Positions 727-39,450 of a DNA stretch of 41,251 nt are shown here, in pieces. The stretch comes from a virus (lineage: Duplodnaviria; Heunggongvirae; Uroviricota; Caudoviricetes). Position numbers and translations under genes: made by a program. Position 1 is the first letter of the stretch; each line of letters starts with the position of its first letter. The DNA is taken from IMG/VR virus record IMGVR_UViG_2869976549_000005, one strand, 5' to 3'. The notes beneath the pieces are model-generated. The model was not told where the DNA came from. It was given only the letters and a program-made list of their open reading frames with translations, and made no database searches.

Positions 727-786
727 CCTCACACAACCGCAAAATCGGTTGTCGGGATTGGCGTCTCGGATAACATCACAACGCAT

Positions 787-808
787 AGCCGCGTTTGCGG
801 TTTTTTTT
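787..808 (+). terminator. intrinsic terminator / attenuator in the leader (hairpin CCGCGTTTGCGG + T8)
   Basis: GC hairpin at 789-800 followed by TTTTTTTT at 801-808, ~70 nt downstream of the predicted start; preceded by a second hairpin CAACCGcaaaatCGGTTG at 734-751. Confidence 0.45.
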
Positions 809-968
809 GCGTTAAGCATTGCCACATTCGCATTATGGTGGGGCGTGCAGGGGCGGAGAAATCCGCGCCGGGTTTTGTGATGACCGGTTACGCCAACCCT
901 GTACGTCTCACCACCTCCCTGATTGGCGTCAGAGGTGGTGATCATCCAATTAATTGGAGTCATCACAT

Positions 969-5748: not shown

Positions 5749-6051
5749 ATGAGCAGAAAAACCCAACGTTACTCTAAAGAGTTCAAAGCCGAAGCTGTCA
5801 GAACGGTTCCTGAAAATCAACTTTCGATCAGTGAAGGCGCTTCCCGATTATCTCTTCCTGAAGGCACTTTAGGACAATGGGTTACCGCCGCCAGAAAAGG
5901 GCTCGGTACTCCTGGTTCCCGCACGGTGGCTGAACTGGAATCTGAAATTCTGCAACTGCGTAAGGCGTTAAATGAAGCTCGCCTTGAGCGAGATATATTA
6001 AAAAAAGCAACAGCGTATTTTGCACAGGAGTCGCTGAAAAATACGCGTTAA
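5749..6051 (+). CDS. IS600 OrfA (transposase N-terminal HTH component)
   Basis: MSRKTQRYSKEFKAEAVRTV..., 100 aa. Confidence 0.9.
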   Translation: MSRKTQRYSKEFKAEAVRTVPENQLSISEGASRLSLPEGTLGQWVTAARKGLGTPGSRTVAELESEILQLRKALNEARLERDILKKATAYFAQESLKNTR

Positions 6052-6086
6052 TCGAACAATGGCGACAACAATTTCCCATTGAAGCG

Positions 6087-6905
6087 ATGTGTCAGGTATT
6101 TGGTGTATCCAGGAGCGGTTATTACAACTGGGTACAGCATGAACCCTCAGACAGAAAACAAAGTGATGAGCGGCTAAAACTGGAGATTAAGGTGGCACAT
6201 ATCCGCACTCGCGAAACATATGGAACCCGGCGGCTCCAGACGGAGCTGGCAGAGAATGGCATCATTGTTGGTCGTGACCGACTGGCACGTCTTCGTAAGG
6301 AGCTAAGGCTACGCTGTAAGCAGAAACGCAAGTTCAGAGCGACTACGAACTCGAACCACAATCTGCCAGTTGCGCCAAATCTGCTGAACCAGACGTTCGC
6401 TCCTACAGCACCAAATCAGGTCTGGGTGGCGGACCTGACGTATGTTGCCACACAGGAGGGATGGTTGTACCTCGCTGGCATCAAAGATGTTTATACGTGC
6501 GAAATTGTCGGCTACGCCATGGGAGAGCGCATGACAAAAGAGCTGACAGGTAAAGCCCTGTTTATGGCGCTCAGGAGCCAGCGCCCACCTGCCGGGCTAA
6601 TCCACCACTCTGATCGAGGTTCACAGTACTGCGCATACGATTACCGGGTCATACAGGAGCAGTCTGGTCTGAAAACATCAATGTCGCGTAAAGGTAACTG
6701 TTACGACAACGCTCCGATGGAAAGCTTCTGGGGAACGCTGAAAAATGAGAGCCTGAGCCACTATCGTTTTAATAACCGGGATGAAGCCATCTCAGTAATA
6801 CGGGAATACATTGAGATTTTCTACAATCGTCAGCGTCGTCACTCTCGTCTGGGGAATATCTCCCCGGCAGCCTTCAGGGAAAAATATCATCAGATGGCTG
6901 CTTAA
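6087..6905 (+). CDS. IS600 OrfB (transposase catalytic DDE component; expressed as OrfAB fusion by frameshift)
   Basis: 272-aa ORF with IS3-family integrase-core sequence. Confidence 0.9.
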   Translation: MCQVFGVSRSGYYNWVQHEPSDRKQSDERLKLEIKVAHIRTRETYGTRRLQTELAENGIIVGRDRLARLRKELRLRCKQKRKFRATTNSNHNLPVAPNLLNQTFAPTAPNQVWVADLTYVATQEGWLYLAGIKDVYTCEIVGYAMGERMTKELTGKALFMALRSQRPPAGLIHHSDRGSQYCAYDYRVIQEQSGLKTSMSRKGNCYDNAPMESFWGTLKNESLSHYRFNNRDEAISVIREYIEIFYNRQRRHSRLGNISPAAFREKYHQMAA

Positions 6906-10237: not shown

Positions 10238-13200
10238 TCAGCTGATACTGATGCCTGCGGTGGCTTTCTTCATCACCACAACCAGCAAATCGCTGATACT
10301 TGCTGTGGGATACCAGTTATTCACCAGCCATGCTGACACCGAAAACTCCAGCGTCATGTGGCCGCGACCAGCTGGCATATCAATAACACCACTGTAAATC
10401 AGCGTATTATCCAGCGCGGTACGGTTATAAATTTCAGCACCGTTTTTCCGTACTATCAGGCGGCATGACGAATAAATATCGTTATTCTCCCGCTCATGTT
10501 TAGCGCCGCTGAATGCCACCGCCGGAATAACAATTTGCCTGTCAAAAGGCTGATCGTCATAAATCCTGACGGTAATGGTCCCTGATGGCCACCGCTCCGG
10601 TGCCCGGGAGTCCCGCGGAAAAGCCTTACCCACTGTTTTGACTATATCGCCTTCAATCTGGTTGGCTGACAGTTTCCCCTTAATCTGACAGTTCTCATTA
10701 ATTGTGACATTGTTGAGCGTCCCGGCGTTCGCATTCACACTGCCACTGATATCTGCATTTTTAGCGGTCAGTTTTCCGTCCGGTGTCAGGGAAAATGCCG
10801 GAGGATTACCGCCGCTGGTAATGGTGGGAGCCGTCAGGCGTTTCAGGAACACGTCGTTCATGAATATCTGATCGCCCTGACCAACAAACATCGGCTTTGT
10901 GTTGCCATTCGCAGGATTAATCATCGCAATCCTGTCTGCCGCCAGCAGCACCTGACTCTGCATTCCTGCTGGCGTATTCTCAATACCGGCACCGATACCC
11001 GCAATATAAAGGCGTCCGTCCTTCATCTGTTGCAGCTTCACAGCCCACATGCTGTTCAGATTATTATTTGTATCAACCTGAACCTTCTGTATCTGCTGGA
11101 TTGCCGCACTCTGGTCTTTCAGTTTCTTATTGACAGTCTGCGTGATTTCATTGCTGACATCCGTAATGGACGTCCTGATTTCAGCCAGGTCAGGCGCAAG
11201 CTGACCGTTATCAATCTGCGTCCACAGCTCCTGAGCCAGATGTGTTTTCCCTATCTCTCCTTTGAAAAAATCCAGGTAACCTTCCGCATCATCGCTCGCC
11301 CGACCGACAGCCTCCACGAATGCCGATTTGCCAACGGTGTTCACACTGCGAACGTAAAAATAATAATCATGGCCCGGTTTGATATTGATACTGGCGGCTA
11401 TCCAGTACAGCGCCGTGCCAAGATAGCGGGCGCTGGTTTCAACCTGCCTGATATCCGCAATCCGCTTTTCCGAGAACCAGAACTCAAACTGTACCGTCGG
11501 GTCATAAACGGCAAGATGCGGCGTTGCGGTTATCTGAAAATAGCCCGGCGTCAGCTCAATCCGCGACGGTGCTGCCGGTGCGGCAATCCGGAAGGTGGTG
11601 GTGGCAGGTTCACCCTGCTGGCCATAGCTGTTTATCGCCCGCACCGTCAGGGTGTATTCCCCGAGCGGCAGGCCGCTGAAACGGTGCTCCGTGTCTGCGG
11701 TGATGGCGGTGGTCACCAGTCTGGCATCCGTTCCCTTACCACTGGTCAGGCGCAGACTGAAGCGCACACCCTTCACCACCCGCGGCGTGTCCCATTTCGC
11801 CTGCGCCAGATACTGGCCGTCAGGTGCTGCACTGCCGGTGGGATGACGCTGTTCAGGGAACCTGACTGCGGCTCAAAGCGGGCACCGTTATCCACGATGG
11901 CTTCTTTTTCCAGTACGTGCTGCACCGCCGTGATGGCAAAGGTGCCGTCCGTGTTTTCCCGGACGGAGACACAGCGGAACAGGCGACGGCGCAGTGACGG
12001 CAGGGAGAGTCCCCACACCCCGTATGTCTCCACACCATCAGGCAGGGTACTGACCTGTATCCGGTCCGGCGCGGGGTGTTCGGTGATGTCCACACTCACC
12101 GGCTTACCGCTGCCGTTAATCAGGTTCACCGTGGCGGCACCGGTCTCCGGAAGTGTCACTTCACGGTCCAGCGTCAGAGTGCGGGTGGCAGCATCAATGG
12201 ACAGGACACGTCCGCCGGTCAGGGTCCCGGCATAGTCGTTATCACAGATTTCAATGATGTCACCGGGTGTGTGCCGCAGCCCCTGAGACCCGAGCGTGAA
12301 ATCCACCGTCTGCGTTTCCAGCAGTTCGGTCTTTATCACCCACAGTCCGGCACGGTGGGCCTGACCGCGGCTGGTACAGCCGAACGCGTCCATCTTCAGC
12401 AGGTTGCGTCCGTAGCGCAGTATGGCTTCCGGGTCTTCCACCAGTTCCGTGGAGGTCTGCCAGCCGTTCTGCGGGTCGGTATAATTCACCTCCACCGCCG
12501 TGTGCCGGTCCTTCAGGGCACTGAAGCTGTAGCGGAAACCCACGCCGTTATCATCCACCACCACATCGCTGTTGGTGTACGGCCACACCACATCCGACGG
12601 GCGGTCCTGAACAAACGTCAGCGTCTGGCCGTTCCATACCGGCATACAGCGCATCGCCGAGCAGAAATCACTGAGCACGTCCCATGCCTTACGCTGTTGT
12701 GCCAGGTACGCATTGAAGGTCATCCGCGGCTCGGTCTCCCCGAAACTATCCGGGACCGTCTGGTCGCAGTACTGCCCGATGGCATACAGCGCCCACTTGT
12801 CCACATCCGCCGCCCCCAGACGTTTTCCCATGCCGTAGCGCGGGTGAGTCAGCATGTCCCACAGACACCAGGCCGGATTGTTGCTGTATGCCGGTTTCAG
12901 GCTGCCGTCCCAGATACCACTGTACGTGCGTTTTTCCGGGTCATAGTTTGACGGCACCTGGATGATGCGACCGCGGATATGGTAGTTCACCGTCATCTGC
13001 TGGCCGCCGAACTGCTCCGCATCCACCTGCAGCCCCACAATGGCCGTGTTCGGGTAGCACTGTTTCACATCGATGATTTCGGTGTATGACGACCACAGCG
13101 TCTTATTCTGCAGCTGGTCCGTGGTGCTGTCCGCTGTCTCCCGGACCATCCGGATGTTAAAAGGACGGGGAGGCAGATTATCCAGAATCACCGACGCCAG

Positions 13201-13689
13201 AAACTGCGAGGTGGTCTTGCCGTTAATGGTGACATCCTTTTCTGTCACCCAGTTACCGTTACGCTGTAACTGAATCAGCAGGCGGACGGATGTCGGGTTT
13301 CGGTCACCCTTTGACGTGGTCTGCACCAGTGACTGCACCCCGAAGGTAACCCGCAGGCGGTCAATGTTCGCGGACGTAATGGTGCGCGTCACCGGTTTTG
13401 CCTTCGTCACTTCCACGCCCAGTCCGGTTTCAGCACCGGAGGACTCAAAGCCTTCCGGTGGTGTCTGCTCCTGCTCCCCGGCGCGTCAGACCGCCGTCAC
13501 ACCGTGTATCACGGGATTACCGTCCGTGTCCGTCAGCGGGGTTTTGTTCACCAGGATACTCTGCAGTCCCTTCACCGGACCTTCTATCAGTCCCTCACCA
13601 ATCGCATCAATCACGCTCATCATCTGCGTGGATTTGAGATTATCCTTCGCCTCACGAGGCGTGTGTGCCTTACCGCCACCTTTTCCCAT
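10238..13689 (-). pseudogene. J: tail tip / host specificity protein J, inactivated (in-frame TGA plus frameshifting deletion)
   Basis: Three ORFs (13689-13486, 13416-11773, 11779-10238) together align with lambda J; in-frame TGA at 13486-13488; frame change near 11790 where ~26-28 nt of lambda sequence is missing. Confidence 0.85.
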
Positions 13690-21745: not shown

Positions 21746-23298
<1,553 letters not shown>

Positions 23299-23357
23299 TA
23301 GCCTGAGTTTAACGGACACTCCTTCCTGAAATAGAATGGCATCAGAAGGAGCTAATA

Positions 23358-23660
23358 ATGAGCAGAAAAACCCAACGTTACTCTAAAGAGTTCAAAGCCG
23401 AAGCTGTCAGAACGGTTCTTGAAAATCAACTTTCGATCAGTGAAGGCGCTTCCCGATTATCTCTTCCTGAAGGCACTTTAGGACAATGGGTTACCGCCGC
23501 CAGAAAAGGGCTCGGTACTCCTGGTTCCCGCACGGTGGCTGAACTGGAATCTGAAATTCTGCAACTGCGTAAGGCGTTAAATGAAGCTCGCCTTGAGCGA
23601 GATATATTAAAAAAAGCAACAGCGTATTTTGCACAGGAGTCGCTGAAAAATACGCGTTAA
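23358..23660 (+). CDS. IS600 OrfA
   Basis: 100 aa, identical family to 5749-6051. Confidence 0.9.
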   Translation: MSRKTQRYSKEFKAEAVRTVLENQLSISEGASRLSLPEGTLGQWVTAARKGLGTPGSRTVAELESEILQLRKALNEARLERDILKKATAYFAQESLKNTR

Positions 23661-23695
23661 TCGAACAATGGCGACAACAATTTCCCATTGAAGCG

Positions 23696-24514
23696 ATGTG
23701 TCAGGTATTTGGTGTATCCAGGAGCGGTTATTACAACTGGGTACAGCATGAACCCTCAGACAGAAAACAAAGTGATGAGCGGCTAAAACTGGAGATTAAG
23801 GTGGCACATATCCGCACTCGCGAAACATATGGAACCCGGCGGCTCCAGACGGAGCTGGCAGAGAATGGCATCATCGTTGGTCGTGACCGACTGGCACGTC
23901 TTCGTAAGGAGCTAAGGCTACGCTGTAAGCAGAAACGCAAGTTCAGAGCGACTACGAACTCGAACCACAATCTGCCAGTTGCGCCAAATCTGCTGAACCA
24001 GACGTTCGCTCCTACAGCACCAAATCAGGTCTGGGTGGCGGACCTGACGTATGTTGCCACACAGGAGGGATGGTTGTACCTCGCTGGCATCAAAGATGTT
24101 TATACGTGCGAAATTGTCGGCTACGCCATGGGAGAGCGCATGACAAAAGAGCTGACAGGTAAAGCCCTGTTTATGGCGCTCAGGAGCCAGCGCCCACCTG
24201 CCGGGCTAATCCACCACTCTGATCGAGGTTCACAGTACTGCGCATACGATTACCGGGTCATACAGGAGCAGTCTGGTCTGAAAACATCAATGTCGCGTAA
24301 AGGTAACTGTTACGACAACGCTCCGATGGAAAGCTTCTGGGGAACGCTGAAAAATGAGAGCCTGAGCCACTATCGTTTTAATAACCGGGATGAAGCCATC
24401 TCAGTAATACGGGAATACATTGAGATTTTCTACAATCGTCAGCGTCGTCACTCTCGTCTGGGGAATATCTCCCCGGCAGCCTTCAGGGAAAAATATCATC
24501 AGATGGCTGCTTAA
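23696..24514 (+). CDS. IS600 OrfB
   Basis: 272 aa. Confidence 0.9.
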   Translation: MCQVFGVSRSGYYNWVQHEPSDRKQSDERLKLEIKVAHIRTRETYGTRRLQTELAENGIIVGRDRLARLRKELRLRCKQKRKFRATTNSNHNLPVAPNLLNQTFAPTAPNQVWVADLTYVATQEGWLYLAGIKDVYTCEIVGYAMGERMTKELTGKALFMALRSQRPPAGLIHHSDRGSQYCAYDYRVIQEQSGLKTSMSRKGNCYDNAPMESFWGTLKNESLSHYRFNNRDEAISVIREYIEIFYNRQRRHSRLGNISPAAFREKYHQMAA

Positions 24515-24714
24515 AAAAAGAACAAATGGTAGTGTCCGCTATTGCCAGTACACCTCAGTTAGTCAGCTTCTTATCGAACTTGAGCTGAAGGATCTTAAAA
24601 CAAGTTTCCATAGTGCTCCTGGATTTTCTCTTTTTGGACATTGACGTCTCCACTGGTTTAAACACGGCAATGGAGACTGTGGTGAAAAGAGTTAATTCCC
24701 GGAGTGACTGGCGA

Positions 24715-24847
24715 ATTCCAATCAATGATCGGAAGTATGCCAAATCGTGATCGATTGTGATGCCAAACTGTGATCGGAGATGGATGCCAAATCATGATCG
24801 ATTCGAATGCCAAACTGCGATCGATTCAGATGCCATTTTGCAATCAG
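24715..24847. repeat. tandem array of about six 22-24-bp direct repeats, each with a GATC site (consensus ATGCCAAAYNRYGATCGATT)
   Basis: Contiguous units at 24737, 24760, 24784, 24807 plus degenerate copies at 24715 and 24830; no spacers. Confidence 0.7.
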
Positions 24848-24947
24848 CGCCAGAACAGCAGCTGACAGGCCGTATTTGATTTTTGCGCTCATGGATATTT
24901 ATCAGGATGCTACCAATGAAAGATACTGGAAAGCCAACTGCAAAAAG

Positions 24948-25262
24948 CTAACAACCCGTAATCGAGTTATCAGAACTGTTAATTTTTATGGTATACCGCG
25001 CCTCTGAACAGGGGCGCGTTTCTGGCAACAGCTCGTCCCCTTCACATAACCCGGCAGCAACATCCAGGAAGACCTGTCTGATGCTCCTTCTGGCTGCTGC
25101 CTCATAAAACTCCAGCGCGGCACCTTCAACACGGTCCAGCGAGATGTCCAGGTCAAAAATTTCACCGTCAAAGCGTTTTTTGTCCCGTAACGCTAAAGTT
25201 ACCGTAACTTTATTCTCAAAATTGCGGATCCCTTTCACAATCAGTTCATAGTTTTGAGTCAT
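24948..25262 (-). pseudogene. DUF1327-like (YdfO/YbcV-type) prophage protein, probably C-terminally corrupted
   Basis: N-terminus MTQNYELIVKGIRNFENKVTVTLALRDKKRFDGEIFDLD... recalled as the YdfO/YbcV family; C-terminal 25 aa read through a hairpin/terminator. Confidence 0.35.
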
Positions 25263-25266
25263 TGAA

Positions 25267-25482
25267 TTACTCTCCCCGTGCAGCCTTACGACGGTCCTCT
25301 CTGATTTTGAAATACAGGTTAGTCAGATATGTCAGCAGCCCAAACAGCAGACTCCCCAGCACGCCTATTGCCGCCCACTGAGACGGGGAAACCCTGTCCA
25401 GCAACTGCAGGAACCAGTAGCCCGTTCCCACCGCTGACGTGGTGTATGACACACCTGTTGTGATTTTTTCCATCTGGTACAT
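25267..25482 (-). CDS. phage-21-type class II holin (pinholin S21) with dual start (71-aa and 68-aa forms)
   Basis: [13 protein letters not shown]...[50 protein letters not shown]; two TMDs; Met1 and Met4 dual-start pattern. Confidence 0.75.
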
Positions 25483-25632
25483 ACCCCGTCTCCCGTTATC
25501 CGGAAGCTGACAACAATAAAAAAAGCCACCAGTTAAGTACTGATGGCTCTGATAACTCATGCAGGCATCTCAGACGACCCACTGACACTACCGGTGAGTT
25601 TAACGATACCTTCCATTTGGCTGGCTCACTTT

Positions 25633-27486
25633 TTATGATGATGCCGGTGCATTTATCTCCAGCACCAGACTTTCTATCTCAACGCCATACGCTGCATTTT
25701 TGGTAATATCCGTCAGCGTCAGCGCATTCAGCCCCAGTGTCAGACTGTCTTTTATGACCTGGAATGCCGGGCCAGCCACTCCATTCAGTTTCGGAGTAAC
25801 CGTGGCACTGCCGGCGGTGAACACCAGCTCCAGCGTCAGCCAGTCGTTACTGTAATTCCCGAACTCGCCCAACTTTGTGTTTCCTGCTTTCTTGTGATGC
25901 ATCAGATTCAGTTTGCCGTCTGTGGTCTGGGTGAAGAACGACATCAGGAACGGGTTACCAGTCCCGGTCATCGCCACGACGTCAGGTAACGCTACATCGG
26001 TATACAGATAAATTCCCAGACCGAACTGGTTGTTGGTCAGTGCGCCTGACAGTCGAAACTTACAGCTCAGTCTGCCACCCCGTGTCAGCAGGGAGACTGC
26101 GTCATCCACCGGGCGCGTCAGGGACCAGGCTTTATTGCTCTGCTTGGTGATCTTAAATACACCATCTGACAACTGAACTCCGCCATTCTTAATGCTCCAG
26201 CCCTGCGCAGCAGCGTCTCCGGCTGTCGGCAACAGGGAGATTGTGCGTATGGATGCATCTTCAGACGGCCCCGATGGCGTGTCGCCGCCGGGCGAGGGTT
26301 TGATTTCCGGTGCCTTACCACTAATGAAGGCTAAGGTGCGACCGGCTACGTTCAGAATAGCAGTTGCCATACGATCGGGAATAATGCCACGACGCGCCCA
26401 TGAGCTGAAATGCGTCGGGCGATTTGATGATACCCAGTTTTTGTTCGTTCGGGATGCCGAACCGTAATAACCAGACCCGGCAATATCAGGATCTTCTGAC
26501 GGGTTGTTTGTCGGTGTATTAACTCCGCTACCATCGGTCATAAAGGGAACAAAATAAATCTGCTGGGATTCTTTACCTTTATATGCACCATATACCACTT
26601 CATATTGCGTACCGTGTTCTTGTTTCCACGCGTATGTCGTGTCGCCACAAATCCAGGGGACTGATGCCGGACTTCCACCGTGACACTGCGCCGCCAGCCC
26701 GGCAAGGTCAGCACGGAACTGCTGTACCATTGCAAGAAATGCTGCTGGCTGCTGGGCGTAACTGGCATTCGTCATATCGAATTCCCCCTGCATCCAGCAT
26801 ATCGCCAGCAAAACGTTTTTCGGGTTTTTCTGCAATGCTGCCTTCGTGCGGAAAAGCAGATCCTGATATAACGGCTTACCCACTCCCCAGCGAGCCGAAT
26901 CCTGACTGGCCCCCGTGGACTCGCTGAATGTCCCCTCCGTGCCCTGGGTGAATGCCGAACCACCACGACAGCATGGTACCAGCAGGATCCCCGCATTATT
27001 AGGGATATACGGAAGCAGTTTTTTGGCAATATGTAAGCCCTGTCCGACACAGCCGTACTGCCCTTTGCTCAGGTCAGCCCGGGGATGGTTAATCGTACTC
27101 ATATCCTGAACATCATGCAGACAATGGTCAGCAGGAATGATGTCGTTAAATACGCATACTTCACCACCGGGAGTCACTGTGTTACGACGGGCCAGTTGCT
27201 TAATGCGCGGATGGGGCGCATCGTATGAATCCGGAAGCGGAAGACCTTCACCGTAAGCCATGGCATTGGATTGCCCGGCCAGTACGATGACGTAGTACCA
27301 CTCCGGCTCAGTTGCACCACTGACGACCACATCACCTTCTGCTGCAATCGCCTGCATCAGGGTATAAGGGGTTATGGCCACCGGACTACCAAACGGCTGC
27401 CAGCCCTCCTTCAGTTTTTGTGTCAGTCGTTTCGCAAGGTCTGACGGCGATGCCGCCCTGACCACGTCATAGTGTTTAAATGCCAT
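25633..27486 (-). CDS. nanS: prophage NanS-p-like sialate O-acetylesterase (SGNH hydrolase with N-terminal DUF1737-like region), 617 aa
   Basis: GQSNAMAY esterase motif; size and position (upstream of the holin, downstream of the tRNA cluster) as in Stx-converting phages. Confidence 0.6.
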   Translation of the reverse strand: MAFKHYDVVRAASPSDLAKRLTQKLKEGWQPFGSPVAITPYTLMQAIAAEGDVVVSGATEPEWYYVIVLAGQSNAMAYGEGLPLPDSYDAPHPRIKQLARRNTVTPGGEVCVFNDIIPADHCLHDVQDMSTINHPRADLSKGQYGCVGQGLHIAKKLLPYIPNNAGILLVPCCRGGSAFTQGTEGTFSESTGASQDSARWGVGKPLYQDLLFRTKAALQKNPKNVLLAICWMQGEFDMTNASYAQQPAAFLAMVQQFRADLAGLAAQCHGGSPASVPWICGDTTYAWKQEHGTQYEVVYGAYKGKESQQIYFVPFMTDGSGVNTPTNNPSEDPDIAGSGYYGSASRTNKNWVSSNRPTHFSSWARRGIIPDRMATAILNVAGRTLAFISGKAPEIKPSPGGDTPSGPSEDASIRTISLLPTAGDAAAQGWSIKNGGVQLSDGVFKITKQSNKAWSLTRPVDDAVSLLTRGGRLSCKFRLSGALTNNQFGLGIYLYTDVALPDVVAMTGTGNPFLMSFFTQTTDGKLNLMHHKKAGNTKLGEFGNYSNDWLTLELVFTAGSATVTPKLNGVAGPAFQVIKDSLTLGLNALTLTDITKNAAYGVEIESLVLEINAPASS

Positions 27487-27721
27487 GAATCCTCCCGGCC
27501 GGGATAATATTGTGAGTAAAATAAGGAGCGGGCTGAAGTCCGGAAGTTACAGGACAATGGCAGAAGAGAGACGACAGCCCGCAATTCGAAAAAGACCGCG
27601 CAGTTGCGCAGAGTGATTACTATGGGGTATTATTCGCCAGCTGAAATATTACTTCACGTTTTATTGTTTATTCCTTGCCGCCCGCGTCTCCCAGCGCGGG
27701 CTTTTTTTGCCCACAAGAAAA

Positions 27722-27950
27722 CCCCTCCGGAGAGGGGCTAAAGCCGCGTATCTGTATCATCATGCACATGGTGCCGGGTGCCTCCCGGTGAGTTCAGCCC
27801 GGTGCCACTAAACCCGCGTCATTCTCGTTTTGATAATCAGAGATTATACCGTCACCAGTCGCCCCTCCGCTCAGGGGGATTCACCATGCGAAATTTTTTT
27901 AACAAATGCCCAGTCTGACAGGCAACTGTCAACTTACTGAATTGTGAGCA
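27722..27950 (-). repeat. structured non-coding element, paralogue A
   Basis: Shares hairpin blocks with 29475-29685: CCCCTCCGGAGAGGGG, TGCCGGGTGCCTCCCGGTGA, CGCCCCTCCGC-CAGGGGGATTCACCATGC, AACTGTCAAC, CTGAATTGTGAG. Confidence 0.6.
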
Positions 27951-28084: not shown

Positions 28085-28387
28085 ATGAGCAGAAAAACCC
28101 AACGTTACTCTAAAGAGTTCAAAGCCGAAGCTGTCAGAACGGTTCTTGAAAATCAACTTTCGATCAGTGAAGGCGCTTCCCGATTATCTCTTCCTGAAGG
28201 CACTTTAGGACAATGGGTTACCGCCGCCAGAAAAGGGCTCGGTACTCCTGGTTCCCGCACGGTGGCTGAACTGGAATCTGAAATTCTGCAACTGCGTAAG
28301 GCGTTAAATGAAGCTCGCCTTGAGCGAGATATATTAAAAAAAGCAACAGCGTATTTTGCACAGGAGTCGCTGAAAAATACGCGTTAA
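28085..28387 (+). CDS. IS600 OrfA
   Basis: 100 aa. Confidence 0.9.
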   Translation: MSRKTQRYSKEFKAEAVRTVLENQLSISEGASRLSLPEGTLGQWVTAARKGLGTPGSRTVAELESEILQLRKALNEARLERDILKKATAYFAQESLKNTR

Positions 28388-28422
28388 TCGAACAATGGCG
28401 ACAACAATTTCCCATTGAAGCG

Positions 28423-29241
28423 ATGTGTCAGGTATTTGGTGTATCCAGGAGCGGTTATTACAACTGGGTACAGCATGAACCCTCAGACAGAAAACAAAGT
28501 GATGAGCGGCTAAAACTGGAGATTAAGGTGGCACATATCCGCACTCGCGAAACATATGGAACCCGGCGGCTCCAGACGGAGCTGGCAGAGAATGGCATCA
28601 TCGTTGGTCGTGACCGACTGGCACGTCTTCGTAAGGAGCTAAGGCTACGCTGTAAGCAGAAACGCAAGTTCAGAGCGACTACGAACTCGAACCACAATCT
28701 GCCAGTTGCGCCAAATCTGCTGAACCAGACGTTCGCTCCTACAGCACCAAATCAGGTCTGGGTGGCGGACCTGACGTATGTTGCCACACAGGAGGGATGG
28801 TTGTACCTCGCTGGCATCAAAGATGTTTATACGTGCGAAATTGTCGGCTACGCCATGGGAGAGCGCATGACAAAAGAGCTGACAGGTAAAGCCCTGTTTA
28901 TGGCGCTCAGGAGCCAGCGCCCACCTGCCGGGCTAATCCACCACTCTGATCGAGGTTCACAGTACTGCGCATACGATTACCGGGTCATACAGGAGCAGTC
29001 TGGTCTGAAAACATCAATGTCGCGTAAAGGTAACTGTTACGACAACGCTCCGATGGAAAGCTTCTGGGGAACGCTGAAAAATGAGAGCCTGAGCCACTAT
29101 CGTTTTAATAACCGGGATGAAGCCATCTCAGTAATACGGGAATACATTGAGATTTTCTACAATCGTCAGCGTCGTCACTCTCGTCTGGGGAATATCTCCC
29201 CGGCAGCCTTCAGGGAAAAATATCATCAGATGGCTGCTTAA
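28423..29241 (+). CDS. IS600 OrfB
   Basis: 272 aa. Confidence 0.9.
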   Translation: MCQVFGVSRSGYYNWVQHEPSDRKQSDERLKLEIKVAHIRTRETYGTRRLQTELAENGIIVGRDRLARLRKELRLRCKQKRKFRATTNSNHNLPVAPNLLNQTFAPTAPNQVWVADLTYVATQEGWLYLAGIKDVYTCEIVGYAMGERMTKELTGKALFMALRSQRPPAGLIHHSDRGSQYCAYDYRVIQEQSGLKTSMSRKGNCYDNAPMESFWGTLKNESLSHYRFNNRDEAISVIREYIEIFYNRQRRHSRLGNISPAAFREKYHQMAA

Positions 29242-29474
29242 AAAAAGAACAAATGGTAGTGTCCGCTATTGCCAGTACACCTCAGGATAGCGGTCATGTG
29301 ATGCCGGTTTCCCGGTAACTCAGCACCGGTATCTGAGTCAACGTTTTCTCTACTGGGTCATTTCCGATACGCCCTGCCTGCTGACAGGCTTTCATCACAT
29401 CTGAAAATATAGCACCCTGACTGATACTGTAGTACCTAAGGTTCCAGAAACTGTGATGTATCCGGCACAGAAAA

Positions 29475-29685
29475 GCCCCTCCGGAGAGGGCTGGAGAGTG
29501 GCGCTATGTGCCATTGCATGATGCCGGGTGCCTCCCGGTGAATTCAGTACCAGCACCTGAATCCGCGATTATCCCATATACCTACTCGCTGATTGCCCCT
29601 CCGCACAGGGGGATTCACCATGCCAGTTTCTTTTAACAAACTCCCCGCAAAACAGACAACTGTCAACCGTCTGAATTGTGAGACA
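29475..29685 (-). repeat. structured non-coding element, paralogue B
   Basis: See 27722-27950; conserved hairpins with compensatory loop differences. Confidence 0.6.
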
Positions 29686-29688
29686 TTT

Positions 29689-29714
29689 AAAAAAAAGGCC
29701 CGCAAAAGCGAGCC
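29689..29714 (-). terminator. intrinsic terminator just 3' of tRNA-Arg(UCU)
   Basis: Minus-strand GGCTCGC-tttt-GCGGGCC hairpin followed by T9. Confidence 0.5.
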
Positions 29715-29728
29715 AGGGAAAATAAGTG

Positions 29729-29805
29729 TGGCGCGTTGTACTGGATTCGAACCAGTGACCGATTGCTTAGAAGGCAATTGCTCTGTCCGGCTGAGCTAAC
29801 AACGC
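29729..29805 (-). tRNA. argO: tRNA-Arg (anticodon UCU), 77 nt, CCA encoded
   Basis: Cloverleaf deduced by hand: acceptor GCGUUGU/ACAACGC, anticodon loop CUUCUAA, T-loop GGTTCGAATCC. Confidence 0.8.
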
Positions 29806-29843
29806 ATGATGCAGATAATGGACCGCCATCGGGGACTTGAACC

Positions 29844-31181
29844 CATAAGCGCTAACTTAAGGGTTGTGGTATTACGCCTGATATGATTTAACGTGCCGAT
29901 GAATTACTCTCACGATAACTGGTCAGCAATTCTGGCCCATATTGGTAAGCCCGAAGAACTGGATACTTCGGCACGTAATGCCGGGGCTCTAACCCGCCGC
30001 CGCGAAATTCGTGATGCTGCAACTCTGCTACGTCTGGGGCTGGCTTACGGCCCCGGGGGGATGTCATTACGTGAAGTCACTGCATGGGCTCAGCTCCATG
30101 ACGTTGCAACATTATCTGACGTGGCTCTCCTGAAGCGGCTGCGGAATGCCGCCGACTGGTTTGGCATACTTGCCGCACAAACACTTGCTGTACGCGCCGC
30201 AGTTACGGGTTGTACAAGCGGAAAGAGATTGCGTCTTGTCGATGGAACAGCAATCAGTGCGCCCGGGGGCGGCAGCGCTGAATGGCGACTACATATGGGA
30301 TATGATCCTCATACCTGTCAGTTCACTGATTTTGAGCTAACCGACAGCAGAGACGCTGAACGGCTGGACCGATTTGCGCAAACGGCAGACGAGATACGCA
30401 TTGCTGACCGGGGATTCGGTTCGCGTCCCGAATGTATCCGCTCACTTGCTTTTGGAGAAGCTGATTATATCGTCCGGGTTCACTGGCGAGGATTGCGCTG
30501 GTTAACTGCAGAAGGAATGCGCTTTGACATGATGGGTTTTCTGCGCGGGCTGGATTGCGGTAAGAACGGTGAAACCACTGTAATGATAGGCAATTCAGGT
30601 AATAAAAAAGCCGGAGCTCCCTTTCCGGCACGTCTCATTGCCGTATCACTTCCTCCCGAAAAAGCATTAATCAGTAAAACCCGACTGCTCAGCGAGAATC
30701 GTCGAAAAGGACGAGTAGTTCAGGCGGAAACGCTGGAAGCAGCGGGCCATGTGCTATTGCTAACATCATTACCGGAAGATGAATATTCAGCAGAGCAAGT
30801 GGCTGACTGTTACCGTCTGCGATGGCAAATTGAACTGGCTTTTAAGCGGCTCAAAAGTTTGCTGCACCTGGATGCTTTGCGTGCAAAGGAACCTGAACTC
30901 GCGAAAGCGTGGATATTTGCTAATCTACTCGCCGCATTTTTAATTGACGACATAATCCAGCCATCGCTGGATTTCCCCCCAGAAGTGCCGGATCCGAAAA
31001 GAAGAACTAACTCGTTGTGGAGAATAACAAAAATGGTCATCTGGAGCTTACAGGTGGCCATTCGTGGGACAGTATCCCTGACAGCCTACAAAACGCAATT
31101 GAAGAACGCGAGGCATCGTCTTAACGAGGCACCGAGGCGTCGCATTCTTCAGATGGTTCAACCCTTAAGTTAGCGCTTATG
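29844..31181 (+). mobile_element. IS186 (IS4 family), 1338 bp, inserted at a GGGG-N7-CCCC site with ~12-bp target duplication
   Basis: Termini CATAAGCGCTAACTTAAGGGTTG...CAACCCTTAAGTTAGCGCTTATG; GGGACTTGAACCC duplicated on both sides. Confidence 0.9.
29893..31173 (+). CDS. IS186 transposase
   Basis: MNYSHDNWSAILAHIGKPEELDTSARNAG... 426-aa ORF. Confidence 0.9.
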   Translation: MPMNYSHDNWSAILAHIGKPEELDTSARNAGALTRRREIRDAATLLRLGLAYGPGGMSLREVTAWAQLHDVATLSDVALLKRLRNAADWFGILAAQTLAVRAAVTGCTSGKRLRLVDGTAISAPGGGSAEWRLHMGYDPHTCQFTDFELTDSRDAERLDRFAQTADEIRIADRGFGSRPECIRSLAFGEADYIVRVHWRGLRWLTAEGMRFDMMGFLRGLDCGKNGETTVMIGNSGNKKAGAPFPARLIAVSLPPEKALISKTRLLSENRRKGRVVQAETLEAAGHVLLLTSLPEDEYSAEQVADCYRLRWQIELAFKRLKSLLHLDALRAKEPELAKAWIFANLLAAFLIDDIIQPSLDFPPEVPDPKRRTNSLWRITKMVIWSLQVAIRGTVSLTAYKTQLKNARHRLNEAPRRRILQMVQPLS

Positions 31182-31251
31182 GGACTTGAACCCCGCGCAG
31201 CCAGCTTCGAAGGCTGGCGCTCTTTCCTGATGAGCTAATGGCGGTATGTGA

Positions 31252-31327
31252 TGGTGGCCCTTGCTGGATTTGAACCAGCGACCTGGCGATTATGAGTCGC
31301 TCGCTCTCACCACTGAGCTAAAGGGCC
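31252..31327 (-). tRNA. ileZ: tRNA with anticodon CAU, ileX/ileZ-like (tRNA-Ile2 type), 76 nt
   Basis: GGCCCUUUAGCUCAGUGG...anticodon loop CUCAUAA...GGUUCAAAUCC...CCA; resembles E. coli ileX rather than initiator or elongator Met. Confidence 0.7.
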
Positions 31328-31367
31328 GGGAGCCGCATAATAACGACGCGTAATTAATTCTTCAATA

Positions 31368-32426
31368 TCATCCGTTCTGGCTGACTAAATCCTGTACTTC
31401 CCGAACCGTCTGCTCAAAACGTTCAGTCTCCAGCTCAACGCCAATTGCACGACGCCCGAGCGCCAGTGCCGCTTTCACTGTCGAACCCAACCCCATGAAA
31501 AAATCTGCAATCAGGTCACCCGGACGACTGCTAGCGCTGATTATCTGCTGCAGCATTTCTGCCGGTTTTTCGCACGGATGTTTCCCGGGATAGAACTGCA
31601 CCGGTTTATGCGTCCACACATCGGTATACGGCACCTGCACCGTCACGCCAAAATACCGCCGCAGATGTTTATATTCACTCAGCAGCTCCGCATACTGCCG
31701 GTTCAGTGAGGTATACGTATCCACCAGCTGGTGGTGGAGCTTTTCCAGTTCACCACGCCGATGCTTCTCTTCTGCCACCCGGGCAAACAGCGCCTGTAAT
31801 TTCAGATAATCGCTTTCATTCGGCAACTGCCACTGACCGGCACTGAACCAGTGCGACACCATGTTTTTCTTTCCTGTGGCATCTGCAATCTGTTTTGCCG
31901 TTATCCCCAGGGCAGCTCGCGCATCACGAAAGTAAGAAATCAGCGGGGCCATCACATGCTGTTTCAGTGCACTGCCCTTCGCCGCATACCCGGCATCTTT
32001 CGGACGATACGGCCCCTGATAATGTTCCGCGAACAGAATGCGCTCTGTGGCGGGGAAATACGCCCGCAGGCTTTCCTTGTTGCATCCGTTCCAGCGTCCG
32101 GACGGCTTCGCCCAGATAATATGGTTCAGCACACTGAAGCGTTCACGCATCATGATTTCGATATCAGATGCCAGGCGATGACCACAGAACAGGTAAAGAC
32201 TTCCGGCAGGTTTCAGCACCCGCCAGAACTGCGCCAGACACTGGTCCAGCCACTTCAGGTAATCATCGTCGCCCTTCCACTGGTTATCCCAGCCCTCAGG
32301 CTTCACTTTAAAGTACGGCGGGTCCGTGACTATCAGGTCAACAGAATTTTCGGGTAACGACCGGATAAATTCCAGGCAGTCGGCGTTGATTAACTCACAA
32401 CTGGATATTTTTACAGTATTAAGCAT
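31368..32426 (-). CDS. orphan DNA methyltransferase (amino-methyltransferase; DPPY motif N-terminal, FxGxG SAM motif C-terminal)
   Basis: DLIVTDPPY near the N-terminus and DFFMGLGST near the C-terminus; no adjacent restriction endonuclease gene. Confidence 0.8.
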   Translation of the reverse strand: MLNTVKISSCELINADCLEFIRSLPENSVDLIVTDPPYFKVKPEGWDNQWKGDDDYLKWLDQCLAQFWRVLKPAGSLYLFCGHRLASDIEIMMRERFSVLNHIIWAKPSGRWNGCNKESLRAYFPATERILFAEHYQGPYRPKDAGYAAKGSALKQHVMAPLISYFRDARAALGITAKQIADATGKKNMVSHWFSAGQWQLPNESDYLKLQALFARVAEEKHRRGELEKLHHQLVDTYTSLNRQYAELLSEYKHLRRYFGVTVQVPYTDVWTHKPVQFYPGKHPCEKPAEMLQQIISASSRPGDLIADFFMGLGSTVKAALALGRRAIGVELETERFEQTVREVQDLVSQNG

Positions 32427-32998: not shown

Positions 32999-33820
32999 TT
33001 ACCTAGTTACCTTTTTTAACTGCCGCTCAGCCCATGCTTCTTCAATATCAAACCGGGTCACCAGCGCATCATAAAATTTCTTAACTGTTTTTTCCCATGA
33101 CGCGCGTGTTATCTGGTTTGTCACCTCGCATATAGCATTAAATGCCTCCGTTGATGGTAGTCTTTCATAGCCACGACCACCACAACGCTGGCAGTCTCTG
33201 ATAACAGGCATACCACGTTTTACCGACTCTTCACGATGAATGGCGACACCACGCCCACGGCAATCCTTACAGGCGGTGGAAACCTCACCCTTTCCGCCAC
33301 ACTCCGGACAGGCAACTTTTACCACCTCCCTGACTTTTTTCCATTCTTCCCAGTAAGACGGATACACACCTTTCGTACACTTTGCCCATACCGGCGGCTT
33401 ACCATCCGGATACTGGATCTTGTTTGTAAAAACCTCGCTTTCAATAAATTTTTTTCCGTGACAGCAGGGGCACTGTTTTTTGCTCGCCGCGCTACGGGCA
33501 TAATCTTCAAACGCATACGAAGCCATAATACGCATCACTGCCGGTTTTATTTCTGCCGGGAGTTTTCTTAACGCCGCCACGCGATCACACCGACTGAGTG
33601 CATATTCTGTCAGCAATTCTGTTGCCCGCTCTCTGTCATTCATACTAATGCCCATTTTCCCAAGGAACGCAGAAACCCCCATCTCAGCCCGATTCTGTGT
33701 CATGCCCTGCGCGGCCATCACATCAGTGATACTCAGCGCATCTTTCGACGTTGAGGCCGATGCATCAGTCAGGCCGGGGGATTTTGGGGAGTAGTATTTC
33801 GGTAAATCTTCCAGTTTCAT
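32999..33820 (-). CDS. putative late antiterminator Q (273 aa) with four CxxCxGxG zinc-finger motifs
   Basis: Assigned mainly by position (between RusA and pR'/tR'); motifs CPCCHGKK, CPECGGKG, CKDCRGRG, CQRCGGRG. Confidence 0.5.
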   Translation of the reverse strand: MKLEDLPKYYSPKSPGLTDASASTSKDALSITDVMAAQGMTQNRAEMGVSAFLGKMGISMNDRERATELLTEYALSRCDRVAALRKLPAEIKPAVMRIMASYAFEDYARSAASKKQCPCCHGKKFIESEVFTNKIQYPDGKPPVWAKCTKGVYPSYWEEWKKVREVVKVACPECGGKGEVSTACKDCRGRGVAIHREESVKRGMPVIRDCQRCGGRGYERLPSTEAFNAICEVTNQITRASWEKTVKKFYDALVTRFDIEEAWAERQLKKVTR

Positions 33821-35833: not shown

Positions 35834-35989
35834 TTACTCCTCAGGTTCGTAAGCTGTGAAGACAGCGACCTCCGTCTGGCCGGTTCGAATTCGTACCTCG
35901 CAGAGGTCTTTCCTCGTTACCAGTGCCGTCACTATGACGGTTAAACAGATGACGATCAGGGCGATTAACATCGCCTTTTGCTGCTTCAT
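35834..35989 (-). CDS. hok: Hok/Gef-family type I toxin (51 aa; RelF/HokD-like)
   Basis: MKQQKAMLIALIVICLTVIVTALVTRKDLCEVRIRTGQTEVAVFTAYEPEE; AAGGAG RBS; in-frame upstream extension to 36046. Confidence 0.85.
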   Translation of the reverse strand: MKQQKAMLIALIVICLTVIVTALVTRKDLCEVRIRTGQTEVAVFTAYEPEE

Positions 35990-36200
35990 AGCCTGCTTCT
36001 CCTTGCCTTTCGGCACGTAAGAGGCTAACCTAGATTTGCCGTTCATAGATTGAGCCTCAGATTAATGTTAAGCGTCTTGCCGGACGCGTAATGTTAACTG
36101 GGGCTTTTCTCTATCTGCCTTTTGGTGTTCATGCCTGAGACAGATAGCCTCAAGCACCCGCTGCAATTCTACTTAACTCTCCTTTTCCCGCAAACCGTTT

Positions 36201-38293: not shown

Positions 38294-39112
38294 TTAAGCA
38301 GCCATCTGATGATATTTTTCCCTGAAGGCTGCCGGGGAGATATTCCCCAGACGAGAGTGACGACGCTGACGATTGTAGAAAATCTCAATGTATTCCCGTA
38401 TTACTGAGATGGCTTCATCCCGGTTATTAAAACGATAGTGGCTCAGGCTCTCATTTTTCAGCGTTCCCCAGAAGCTTTCCATCGGAGCGTTGTCGTAACA
38501 GTTACCTTTACGCGACATTGATGTTTTCAGACCAGACTGCTCCTGTATGACCCGGTAATCGTATGCGCAGTACTGTGAACCTCGATCAGAGTGGTGGATT
38601 AGCCCGGCAGGTGGGCGCTGGCTCCTGAGCGCCATAAACAGGGCTTTACCTGTCAGCTCTTTTGTCATGCGCTCTCCCATGGCGTAGCCGACAATTTCGC
38701 ACGTATAAACATCTTTGATGCCAGCGAGGTACAACCATCCCTCCTGTGTGGCAACATACGTCAGGTCCGCCACCCAGACCTGATTTGGTGCTGTAGGAGC
38801 GAACGTCTGGTTCAGCAGATTTGGCGCAACTGGCAGATTGTGGTTCGAGTTCGTAGTCGCTCTGAACTTGCGTTTCTGCTTACAGTGTAGCCTTAGCTCC
38901 TTACGAAGACGTGCCAGTCGGTCACGACCAACGATGATGCCATTCTCTGCCAGCTCCGTCTGGAGCCGCCGGGTTCCATATGTTTCGCGAGTGCGGATAT
39001 GTGCCACCTTAATCTCCAGTTTTAGCCGCTCATCACTTTGTTTTCTGTCTGAGGGTTCATGCTGTACCCAGTTGTAATAACCGCTCCTGGATACACCAAA
39101 TACCTGACACAT
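38294..39112 (-). CDS. IS600 OrfB
   Basis: 272 aa. Confidence 0.9.
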   Translation of the reverse strand: MCQVFGVSRSGYYNWVQHEPSDRKQSDERLKLEIKVAHIRTRETYGTRRLQTELAENGIIVGRDRLARLRKELRLHCKQKRKFRATTNSNHNLPVAPNLLNQTFAPTAPNQVWVADLTYVATQEGWLYLAGIKDVYTCEIVGYAMGERMTKELTGKALFMALRSQRPPAGLIHHSDRGSQYCAYDYRVIQEQSGLKTSMSRKGNCYDNAPMESFWGTLKNESLSHYRFNNRDEAISVIREYIEIFYNRQRRHSRLGNISPAAFREKYHQMAA

Positions 39113-39147
39113 CGCTTCAATGGGAAATTGTTGTCGCCATTGTTCGA

Positions 39148-39450
39148 TTAACGCGTATTTTTCAGCGACTCCTGTGCAAAATACGCTGTTGCTTTTTTTA
39201 ATATATCTCGCTCAAGGCGAGCTTCATTTAACGCCTTACGCAGTTGCAGAATTTCAGATTCCAGTTCAGCCACCGTGCGGGAACCAGGAGTACCGAGCCC
39301 TTTTCTGGCGGCGGTAACCCATTGTCCTAAAGTGCCTTCAGGAAGAGATAATCGGGAAGCGCCTTCACTGATCGAAAGTTGATTTTCAGGAACCGTTCTG
39401 ACAGCTTCGGCTTTGAACTCTTTAGAGTAACGTTGGGTTTTTCTGCTCAT
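39148..39450 (-). CDS. IS600 OrfA
   Basis: 100 aa. Confidence 0.9.
   Translation of the reverse strand: MSRKTQRYSKEFKAEAVRTVPENQLSISEGASRLSLPEGTLGQWVTAARKGLGTPGSRTVAELESEILQLRKALNEARLERDILKKATAYFAQESLKNTR

Follow-up and report, generated by a model that had tools for sequence, protein, structure and literature searches.

An IS186 hot spot at the lon promoter of Escherichia coli B was reportedly described by SaiSree et al. in 2001. According to a later study, IS186 inserts at GGGG(N6/N7)CCCC and duplicates the core together with flanking G and C bases (Lee et al. 2016, PMC5009759). This motif occurs 54 times in K-12, IS186 enters in either orientation, and fimA and menC were hot spots in mutation-accumulation lines; the authors also asked whether retained IS186 sites are selected (PMC5009759). 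No publication linking IS186 to tRNA genes or T-arms, prophage, argN or leuV was found in the searchable literature library. The stretch analyzed here, IMG/VR record IMGVR_UViG_2869976549_000005 (Caudoviricetes; 41,251 nt, referred to as the window), carries an IS186 copy in the T-arm of a prophage tRNA-Arg(UCG) gene, the homologue of argN in the ileZ-argN-argO cluster of Shiga toxin 2 (Stx2) phages. Very probably, this is a recent insertion of IS186 at its known motif in argN of a defective Shigella sonnei prophage, at a site which is a recurrent hot spot, and the insertion is probably neutral. The element, its target duplication and the two gene fragments are located as follows:

29844-31181, plus strand: IS186 (IS4 family), 1338 bp; transposase on the plus strand, opposite to the tRNA cluster
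29844-29866: left terminal inverted repeat of IS186, 23 bp (CATAAGCGCTAACTTAAGGGTTG), perfectly complementary to 31159-31181
31159-31181: right terminal inverted repeat of IS186, 23 bp, 23/23 complementary to the left end
29833-29843: target-site duplication, left copy, 11 bp (GGACTTGAACC)
31182-31192: target-site duplication, right copy, 11 bp (GGACTTGAACC)
31182-31244, minus strand: 5' fragment of tRNA-Arg(UCG), nt 1-63, with the acceptor 5' strand, D-arm, anticodon arm and most of the T-arm
29819-29843, minus strand: 3' fragment of tRNA-Arg(UCG), nt 53-77, with the T-loop and T-stem 3' strand, acceptor 3' strand, U73 and CCA

An earlier note on this DNA had placed the IS186 termini at 29844 and 31181, which agrees with the length of 1338 bp and the perfect 23-bp inverted repeats. 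The 13-nt string quoted there as duplicated (GGGACTTGAACCC) is indeed present in two copies, but both include a terminal base of the element itself, and the duplication belonging to these termini is 11 bp. Adjoining flank bases chance to prolong the inverted repeat; hence the boundary and the duplication length are uncertain by 1-2 nt, and a 13-nt repeat could be quoted beside termini which imply 11. The junction k-mer of the insertion is CCATCGGGGACTTGAACCCATAAGCGCTAAC. Compared to the K-12 MG1655 feature labelled 'insertion sequence:IS186A', one substitution and one 1-bp deletion were found over 1338 bp (99.85% identity). The element is also 99.9% identical to many plasmid and chromosomal copies, which RefSeq labels 'IS4-like element IS421 family transposase' or 'IS186/IS421 family'. 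In every respect that can be tested, i.e., length, ends, identity, IS4-family transposase and target motif, the element is IS186.

IS186 sits in the T-loop of the minus-strand tRNA gene, and the duplicated 11 nt correspond to tRNA G53 to C63, which comprise the last two T-stem pairs and the T-loop. The 5' fragment lacks the acceptor 3' strand and the CCA. For the whole window, ARAGORN called two tRNAs only, tRNA-Arg(TCT) and a CAT-anticodon tRNA. After in-silico removal of IS186 and one duplication copy, an additional 77-nt tRNA-Arg(TCG) was called, composed of 29819-29843 and 31193-31244. The claim that the joined flanks rebuild a 77-nt tRNA-Arg(UCG) cloverleaf thus stands; the third tRNA, which the note had proposed to look for by comparing the window with its excised version, appears only after excision. 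The Rfam tRNA model (RF00005) gave a partial match only in the window (31178-31238, 31.2 bits, model positions 7-64), while the intact homologue in S. sonnei 53G reached 58.0 bits (gathering score 29), and the rejoined fragments are identical to this intact tRNA-Arg(TCG). Across six tRNA alleles, 99.2% of the cloverleaf cells are paired and two compensatory pairs occur (7-67 and 28-44), in a small test in which 38 of 500 shuffles did as well. The split gene would be expected to yield no chargeable tRNA-Arg(UCG).

The target in the window is GGGGACTTGAACCCC, i.e., the G4:C4 part of the T-stem plus the 7-nt loop, which fits GGGG-N7-CCCC. The stated preference of IS186 for GC-rich G4-N-C4 targets, and the fit of the T-stem, are therefore in line with the published rule (PMC5009759). 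The motif was re-checked on K-12 IS186A and 10 other IS186 sites, and 11/11 fit. Core and duplication lengths are 7 nt and 11 bp in the window, and 6 nt and 10 bp at K-12 IS186A. In the excised window, five GGGG-N7-CCCC sites were found compared to 1.1 predicted by a first-order Markov model. Four of these are the same site within four copies of IS600, and the fifth is the tRNA T-arm, which is consequently the only such site outside the IS600 copies. The match between motif and T-arm is no chance resemblance. The IS600 copies, 99.8% identical to the RefSeq 'IS3-like element IS600', were recognized as pairs of open reading frames (ORFs):

5749-6905, plus strand: IS600 ORF pair
23358-24514, plus strand: IS600 ORF pair
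28085-29241, plus strand: IS600 ORF pair
38294-39450, minus strand: IS600 ORF pair

Towards the end of orfB, every IS600 copy holds a consensus site for IS186 which is not occupied (GGGGAATATCTCCCC; 6851, 24460, 29187 and about 38334). Thus, the IS600 copies are themselves potential IS186 targets.

Closely related strains had been proposed as a source of the empty site, and S. sonnei supplies it. Many S. sonnei chromosomes, including 53G (HE616528.1), encode a methylase identical to the one beside the tRNAs. In 10/10 S. sonnei loci among the matches listed (37 contigs), the flanks are 99.8-100% identical, the site is empty and tRNA-Arg(TCG) is intact; the flanks are joined directly with a single duplication copy. 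Since the site is still empty in S. sonnei genomes which are otherwise identical, the insertion is recent, rare and lineage-specific within S. sonnei. The IS600 copy downstream of argO is already present in some of the empty-site genomes (CP104423.1) and not in others (53G), so that IS600 entered the ancestral prophage first and IS186 followed. No RefSeq complete E. coli genome matched the right half of the window over more than 50%. The transposase look-up returned ten unrelated IS186 loci and the methylase look-up only empty-site S. sonnei loci.

The position of argN in the cluster, in the following called the argN slot, has been hit repeatedly, a point which the earlier note had missed. Junction queries found IS186 in the homologous slot of about 19 of 5426 complete E. 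coli genomes, ~10 in the orientation of the window and ~9 in the opposite one. Eight occupied slots were verified by sequence and comprise both orientations and three target alleles:

Allele A: UCG tRNA, GGGGACTTGAACCCC, in the window and in E. coli Z1323PEC0012
Allele B: degenerate tRNA-like sequence, GGGGACCCGCCCC, 10-bp core duplication, occupied in both orientations, sometimes in near-identical prophages
Allele C: UCU allele, GGGGACTCGAACCCC

Taken together, the sequences imply at least five independent IS186 events at the argN slot, which is a recurrent hot spot simply because it carries the motif. An uninterrupted cluster was present at least once in 2578 E. coli genomes, so that occupancy is below 1% of cluster-bearing genomes, and about 290 deposited phage genomes have the cluster without a single occupied slot. 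The insertions of the window and of E. coli Z1323PEC0012 share allele and orientation. They were considered as one inherited event, but this was rejected: S. sonnei relatives with identical flanks are empty, and the tRNA flanks differ at several positions, whereas the IS copies differ at only 2.

A tRNA-like sequence of ~81 nt fills the argN slot in many E. coli prophages and in the Stx2e phage P27 (phiP27 locus 1614-1716). It keeps the acceptor and D-arm of argN, its anticodon region is replaced, and it is still hit by IS186. Like the degenerate allele B, the ~81-nt sequence is called by neither ARAGORN nor Rfam, and it is probably a pseudo-tRNA. Beyond the prophages, the four host tRNA-Leu(CAG) genes leuQPVT hold an identical 15-mer (GGGGTTCAAGTCCCC). 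The T-arm of leuV is occupied by IS186 in 1 of 5426 genomes, E. coli 300444 (NZ_CM128586.1, locus 1247-2675), where RefSeq annotates a truncated 73-nt tRNA-Leu; part of the output of the tRNA-Leu junction query was taken up by a frequent locus in which hokE lies between two inverted copies of IS186. These two copies lie ~0.5 kb apart in many E. coli genomes and give the locus the look of a composite transposon or a hot spot. A second candidate from this query (H159) was rejected as an unrelated non-tRNA site (GGGGATAAATCCCC). Slot choice by IS186 appears to be driven by the motif, not by function, because the pseudo-tRNA allele and the identical 15-mer in leuV are occupied as well. In the argN of phage PhiR49_2 (7198-7274), the sequence CCTC forms a G-U pair, and in Nil3 (539-615), GGAG leaves an A-C mismatch. 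These alleles keep, or nearly keep, the T-stem without the G4/C4 motif and would be expected to be immune to IS186. Most simply, IS186 inserts wherever the motif occurs, and the insertions are tolerated in the tRNAs of prophages but purged from those of the host.

The coding capacity of the element deviates from that of K-12:

29899-31173, plus strand: IS186 transposase ORF, 424 amino acids (aa); NCBIfam NF033592 (IS4 family transposase)
31132 region of the window, about IS position 1132: C6 run in IS186

The transposase scores 132.7 bits against NF033592 (cut-off 115). Residues 1-361 are identical to K-12 InsL (370 aa), and the last nine residues of InsL are replaced by a different, longer tail. 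A C7 run, shortened to C6 in the window, shifts the frame and gives 424 aa instead of 370 aa. This variant is widespread, being found at many different chromosomal loci in other genomes and in 270 blocks of the sequence collection, and RefSeq marks such copies as 'frameshifted' pseudogenes. Despite this label, the copies have evidently moved, judging from their distribution. As the same variant resides at many unrelated loci, it would be either mobile itself or mobilized in trans.

The prophage which received the insertion is largely decayed. Along the minus strand, it carries, one after another, hok/sok, Rem, DUF968 and RusA, a Q-type antiterminator, a 65-aa ORF, the methylase, ileZ, argN interrupted by IS186, and argO. 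After argO, a small RNA (sRNA) similar to STnc100, IS600, a second STnc100, a NanS-p-type esterase, a holin and a DUF1327 gene follow on the same strand. Beyond the latter, IS600 and an IS21-family element are found, and then tail genes, with J split in two. The genes in question are:

32999-33820, minus strand: Q-like antiterminator
31368-32426, minus strand: DNA methylase
25633-27486, minus strand: NanS-p-type esterase
25267-25560, minus strand: holin
24948-25262: DUF1327 gene
24515-24947: lysozyme gene, truncated, cut off by IS600
21746-23301, plus strand: IS21-family element with 390-aa and 128-aa ORFs, next to IS600 where lysis-to-head genes belong
10238-13416, minus strand: central tail fibre gene J, split into 547-aa and 513-aa ORFs

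No Rz, terminase, portal or head ORFs were found in the prophage of the window, and a tblastn search with StxA and StxB gave no match in the window with an E-value below 0.4. The prophage is a defective, stx-less lambdoid remnant, neither Stx-converting nor functional. Thus, nothing of a late-gene or toxin programme remains for the insertion to disturb. The earlier note had counted the tRNA among the rare-codon tRNAs which Stx-type phages carry for late-gene and toxin expression. The homology to a tRNA of Stx2 phages, argN, is confirmed, but the supposed consequence does not apply to a defective prophage without stx. What remains as a possible effect would concern the tRNA pool of the host. 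Codon use in the prophage ORFs is 14.3 (CGG), 5.8 (AGA), 4.4 (AGG) and 7.3 (ATA) per 1000 codons. The average use of these four codons in E. coli is lower, and host E. coli tRNAs already read CGA and CGG.

Several RNA features were observed in the window in addition. Copies of the STnc100 sRNA flank IS600 downstream of argO (29463-29652, minus strand, 123.6 bits; 27709-27918, minus strand, 161 bits; Rfam gathering score 47) and occupy the place held by stxAB in Stx2 phages. A hok/sok-type toxin-antitoxin system lies in the early region of the prophage, with a sok RNA (35984-36159, minus strand, 112.4 bits) and a 70-aa ORF (35834-36046, minus strand), for which the homologous gene in S. sonnei loci has a HOK_GEF Pfam match. 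Near the start of the window, the Hfq-binding RNA isrK (733-807, plus strand, 72.2 bits) adjoins a C4 antisense RNA (831-918, plus strand, 75.9 bits). This pair resembles an immunity module of the P1/P7 type and possibly stems from a second phage-derived region.

The course of events is proposed as follows. IS186 would have transposed into the defective, stx-less lambdoid prophage of an S. sonnei strain, where its transposase would have found the GGGG-N7-CCCC formed by the G4:C4 T-stem and the 7-nt T-loop of the tRNA-Arg(UCG) gene. Staggered cleavage and repair would have duplicated 11 bp (tRNA nt 53-63) and left the gene split into a 5' fragment (nt 1-63) without CCA and a 3' fragment (nt 53-77) 1.35 kb away. 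Most likely, the insertion is selectively neutral, because the prophage makes no particles and the host tRNAs read CGA and CGG; neutrality is, however, assumed.

No observation contradicts the core of this course, and the assumption of neutrality is one of several points which limit it. Another concerns the tRNA itself: the first pair of argN, C1-G72, is unusual, as is its U73 discriminator, and argN scores 58 bits with Rfam compared to 70-72 bits for its neighbours, so that its activity prior to the insertion is putative only. If it had already been a non-functional relic before IS186 arrived, nothing would have been inactivated. The features just named (58.0 vs 70.1 and 72.5 bits, the lowest score of the three) and the clearly degenerate pseudo-tRNA in the same slot of many related prophages favour such a relic. 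It is nevertheless unlikely, since the intact allele is called by ARAGORN, scores well above the Rfam gathering score of 29, is conserved in Stx2 phages, where it is annotated as argN, and keeps its cloverleaf with compensatory changes at 7-67 and 28-44; moreover, the frequency of CGG in the prophage genes, above the E. coli average, fits a use for the UCG anticodon. The C-terminal frameshift in the transposase is a further limit; this copy may have been mobilized in trans, or the variant may be active. Furthermore, an exact-pattern junction scan for all three alleles was empty in species-representative genomes and metagenome contigs. As IS elements are a classic source of misassembly and the exact junction was not found in other public sequence searched, a collapsed or misplaced repeat was considered, but an assembly artefact of this kind is extremely improbable: a misplaced repeat gives no perfect 11-bp target duplication at a textbook IS186 motif, and independent complete genomes share the architecture at the homologous site.

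Finally, occupancy of the slot appears much higher than that of the identical host sites in leuQPVT, roughly 19 compared to 1 genome. This contrast fits purifying selection on host tRNAs; positive selection is an unlikely alternative. Under selection, hosts would profit from an IS186 between the Q/methylase genes and the lysis genes, or from the removal of a phage tRNA, through damped late transcription or lysis or an altered tRNA pool, and the repeated occupation of the slot would be accounted for. The about 19 occupied complete genomes with both orientations and three alleles, the single occupation among four host genes with the identical 15-mer, the lack of occupied slots in the about 290 deposited phage genomes with the cluster, and the question of selected sites raised by Lee et al. 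(PMC5009759) speak for it. However, targeting by the motif alone would likewise lead to both orientations and to a hit in a pseudo-tRNA, the slot is occupied in fewer than 1% of the cluster-bearing genomes, and purifying selection on host tRNAs explains the leuQPVT contrast equally well. The prophage of the window had already lost its lysis and head genes and was dead, which left nothing to tame, and polymerase modified by Q, as known for lambda Q, reads through terminators. Selection of this insertion is thus very unlikely. In a more general form, G4:C4 T-arms would be a natural class of IS186 targets with the argN slot as the most occupied one, and its excess over leuQPVT would be due to positive selection for silencing the phage tRNA or insulating the late region. 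This was judged quite unlikely as well; if true, IS186 would be a recurrent host tool of prophage domestication and could modulate late expression of Stx phages. The same insertion in an inducible Stx phage would lie between Q/pR' and stx.

Apart from argN, the tRNA cluster is structurally complete, and potential expression signals were found around it:

29729-29805, minus strand: tRNA-Arg(UCU), argO homologue (ARAGORN; Rfam tRNA, 70.1 bits), gene intact
31252-31327, minus strand: CAU-anticodon tRNA, ileZ homologue (ARAGORN; Rfam, 72.5 bits), gene intact
31337-31365, minus strand: sigma-70 promoter-like site TTGAAG-17-TATTAT just upstream of ileZ, a consensus match only (9/12 positions)
29697-29714, minus strand: terminator-like hairpin and T-run directly after argO
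30610-30629, on the tRNA strand: terminator-like hairpin inside IS186

RefSeq names the CAU-anticodon tRNA of related loci tRNA-Ile. Both neighbouring tRNAs had been described as intact, which ARAGORN and Rfam support for the structure of the genes; it applies not necessarily to their expression. IS186 adds 1.35 kb to the distance between argO and the promoter-like site which precedes ileZ, and promoter-like sites in the region are no more numerous than expected from shuffling. The hairpin inside IS186 is a possible source of polarity, and argO may be under-expressed though the gene is intact.

With regard to the window, a dispensable tRNA of a dead prophage was disrupted by a well-understood transposon acting as expected, which is an ordinary event. 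Its junction is a clean, recent and lineage-specific marker within S. sonnei. For annotation, it is of relevance that PGAP-style pipelines drop such a split tRNA silently or call a truncated one. T-arms with four consecutive G:C pairs match the IS186 motif exactly, and this is a simple structural reason why IS186 keeps hitting the argN slot in lambdoid prophages, the one next to stx2 among them, and now and then a host tRNA-Leu gene. The T-arm of tRNA-Glu is also GGGG-N7-CCCC. This principle of T-arm targeting follows directly from the published motif.

Compared to the IS186 hot spots known from E. coli, the window shows the same element (99.85% identity), the same inverted repeats, the same motif and entry in either orientation at one site. 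Unlike at the lon promoter, fimA and menC, the motif is supplied by the T-arm of a prophage tRNA. The cluster resembles ileZ-argN-argO of Stx2 phages (Stx2a_1447, AP012536.1; 933W-type) in order, orientation and position downstream of Q and a DNA methylase, with about 93% DNA identity and the anticodons UCG (argN), UCU (argO) and CAU (ileZ) in both. Q, methylase, CAU tRNA, two tRNA-Arg and late/lysis genes are found in the same synteny in Stx2a_1447, where the tRNA genes are named ileZ, argN and argO. In Stx2 phages, the cluster lies directly upstream of stxA, and stxAB follows argO, whereas in the defective prophage of the window argO is followed by an STnc100-like sRNA, IS600, another STnc100-like sRNA and the esterase gene, without stx. 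T-arm alleles also differ among phages, since those of PhiR49_2 (CCTC) and Nil3 (GGAG) are without the G4/C4 motif. The leuV insertion of E. coli 300444 agrees with the window in the 15-mer GGGGTTCAAGTCCCC, the duplication register and the position at which the tRNA is split, but concerns a chromosomal housekeeping tRNA with three further copies. Integration of phages and genomic islands by tyrosine integrases likewise places a mobile element in the T-arm or 3' part of a tRNA gene. Tyrosine integrases use an att site which restores the tRNA 3' end, so that the gene remains functional, whereas a gene entered by the DDE transposon IS186 stays disrupted. Unlike such integrase events, the insertion site in the window is without an integrase and without an att duplication of the tRNA 3' end; 11 bp are duplicated instead. 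Thus, IS186 and its motif are what is known, and what is new is another instance with a modest general corollary on tRNA T-arms.

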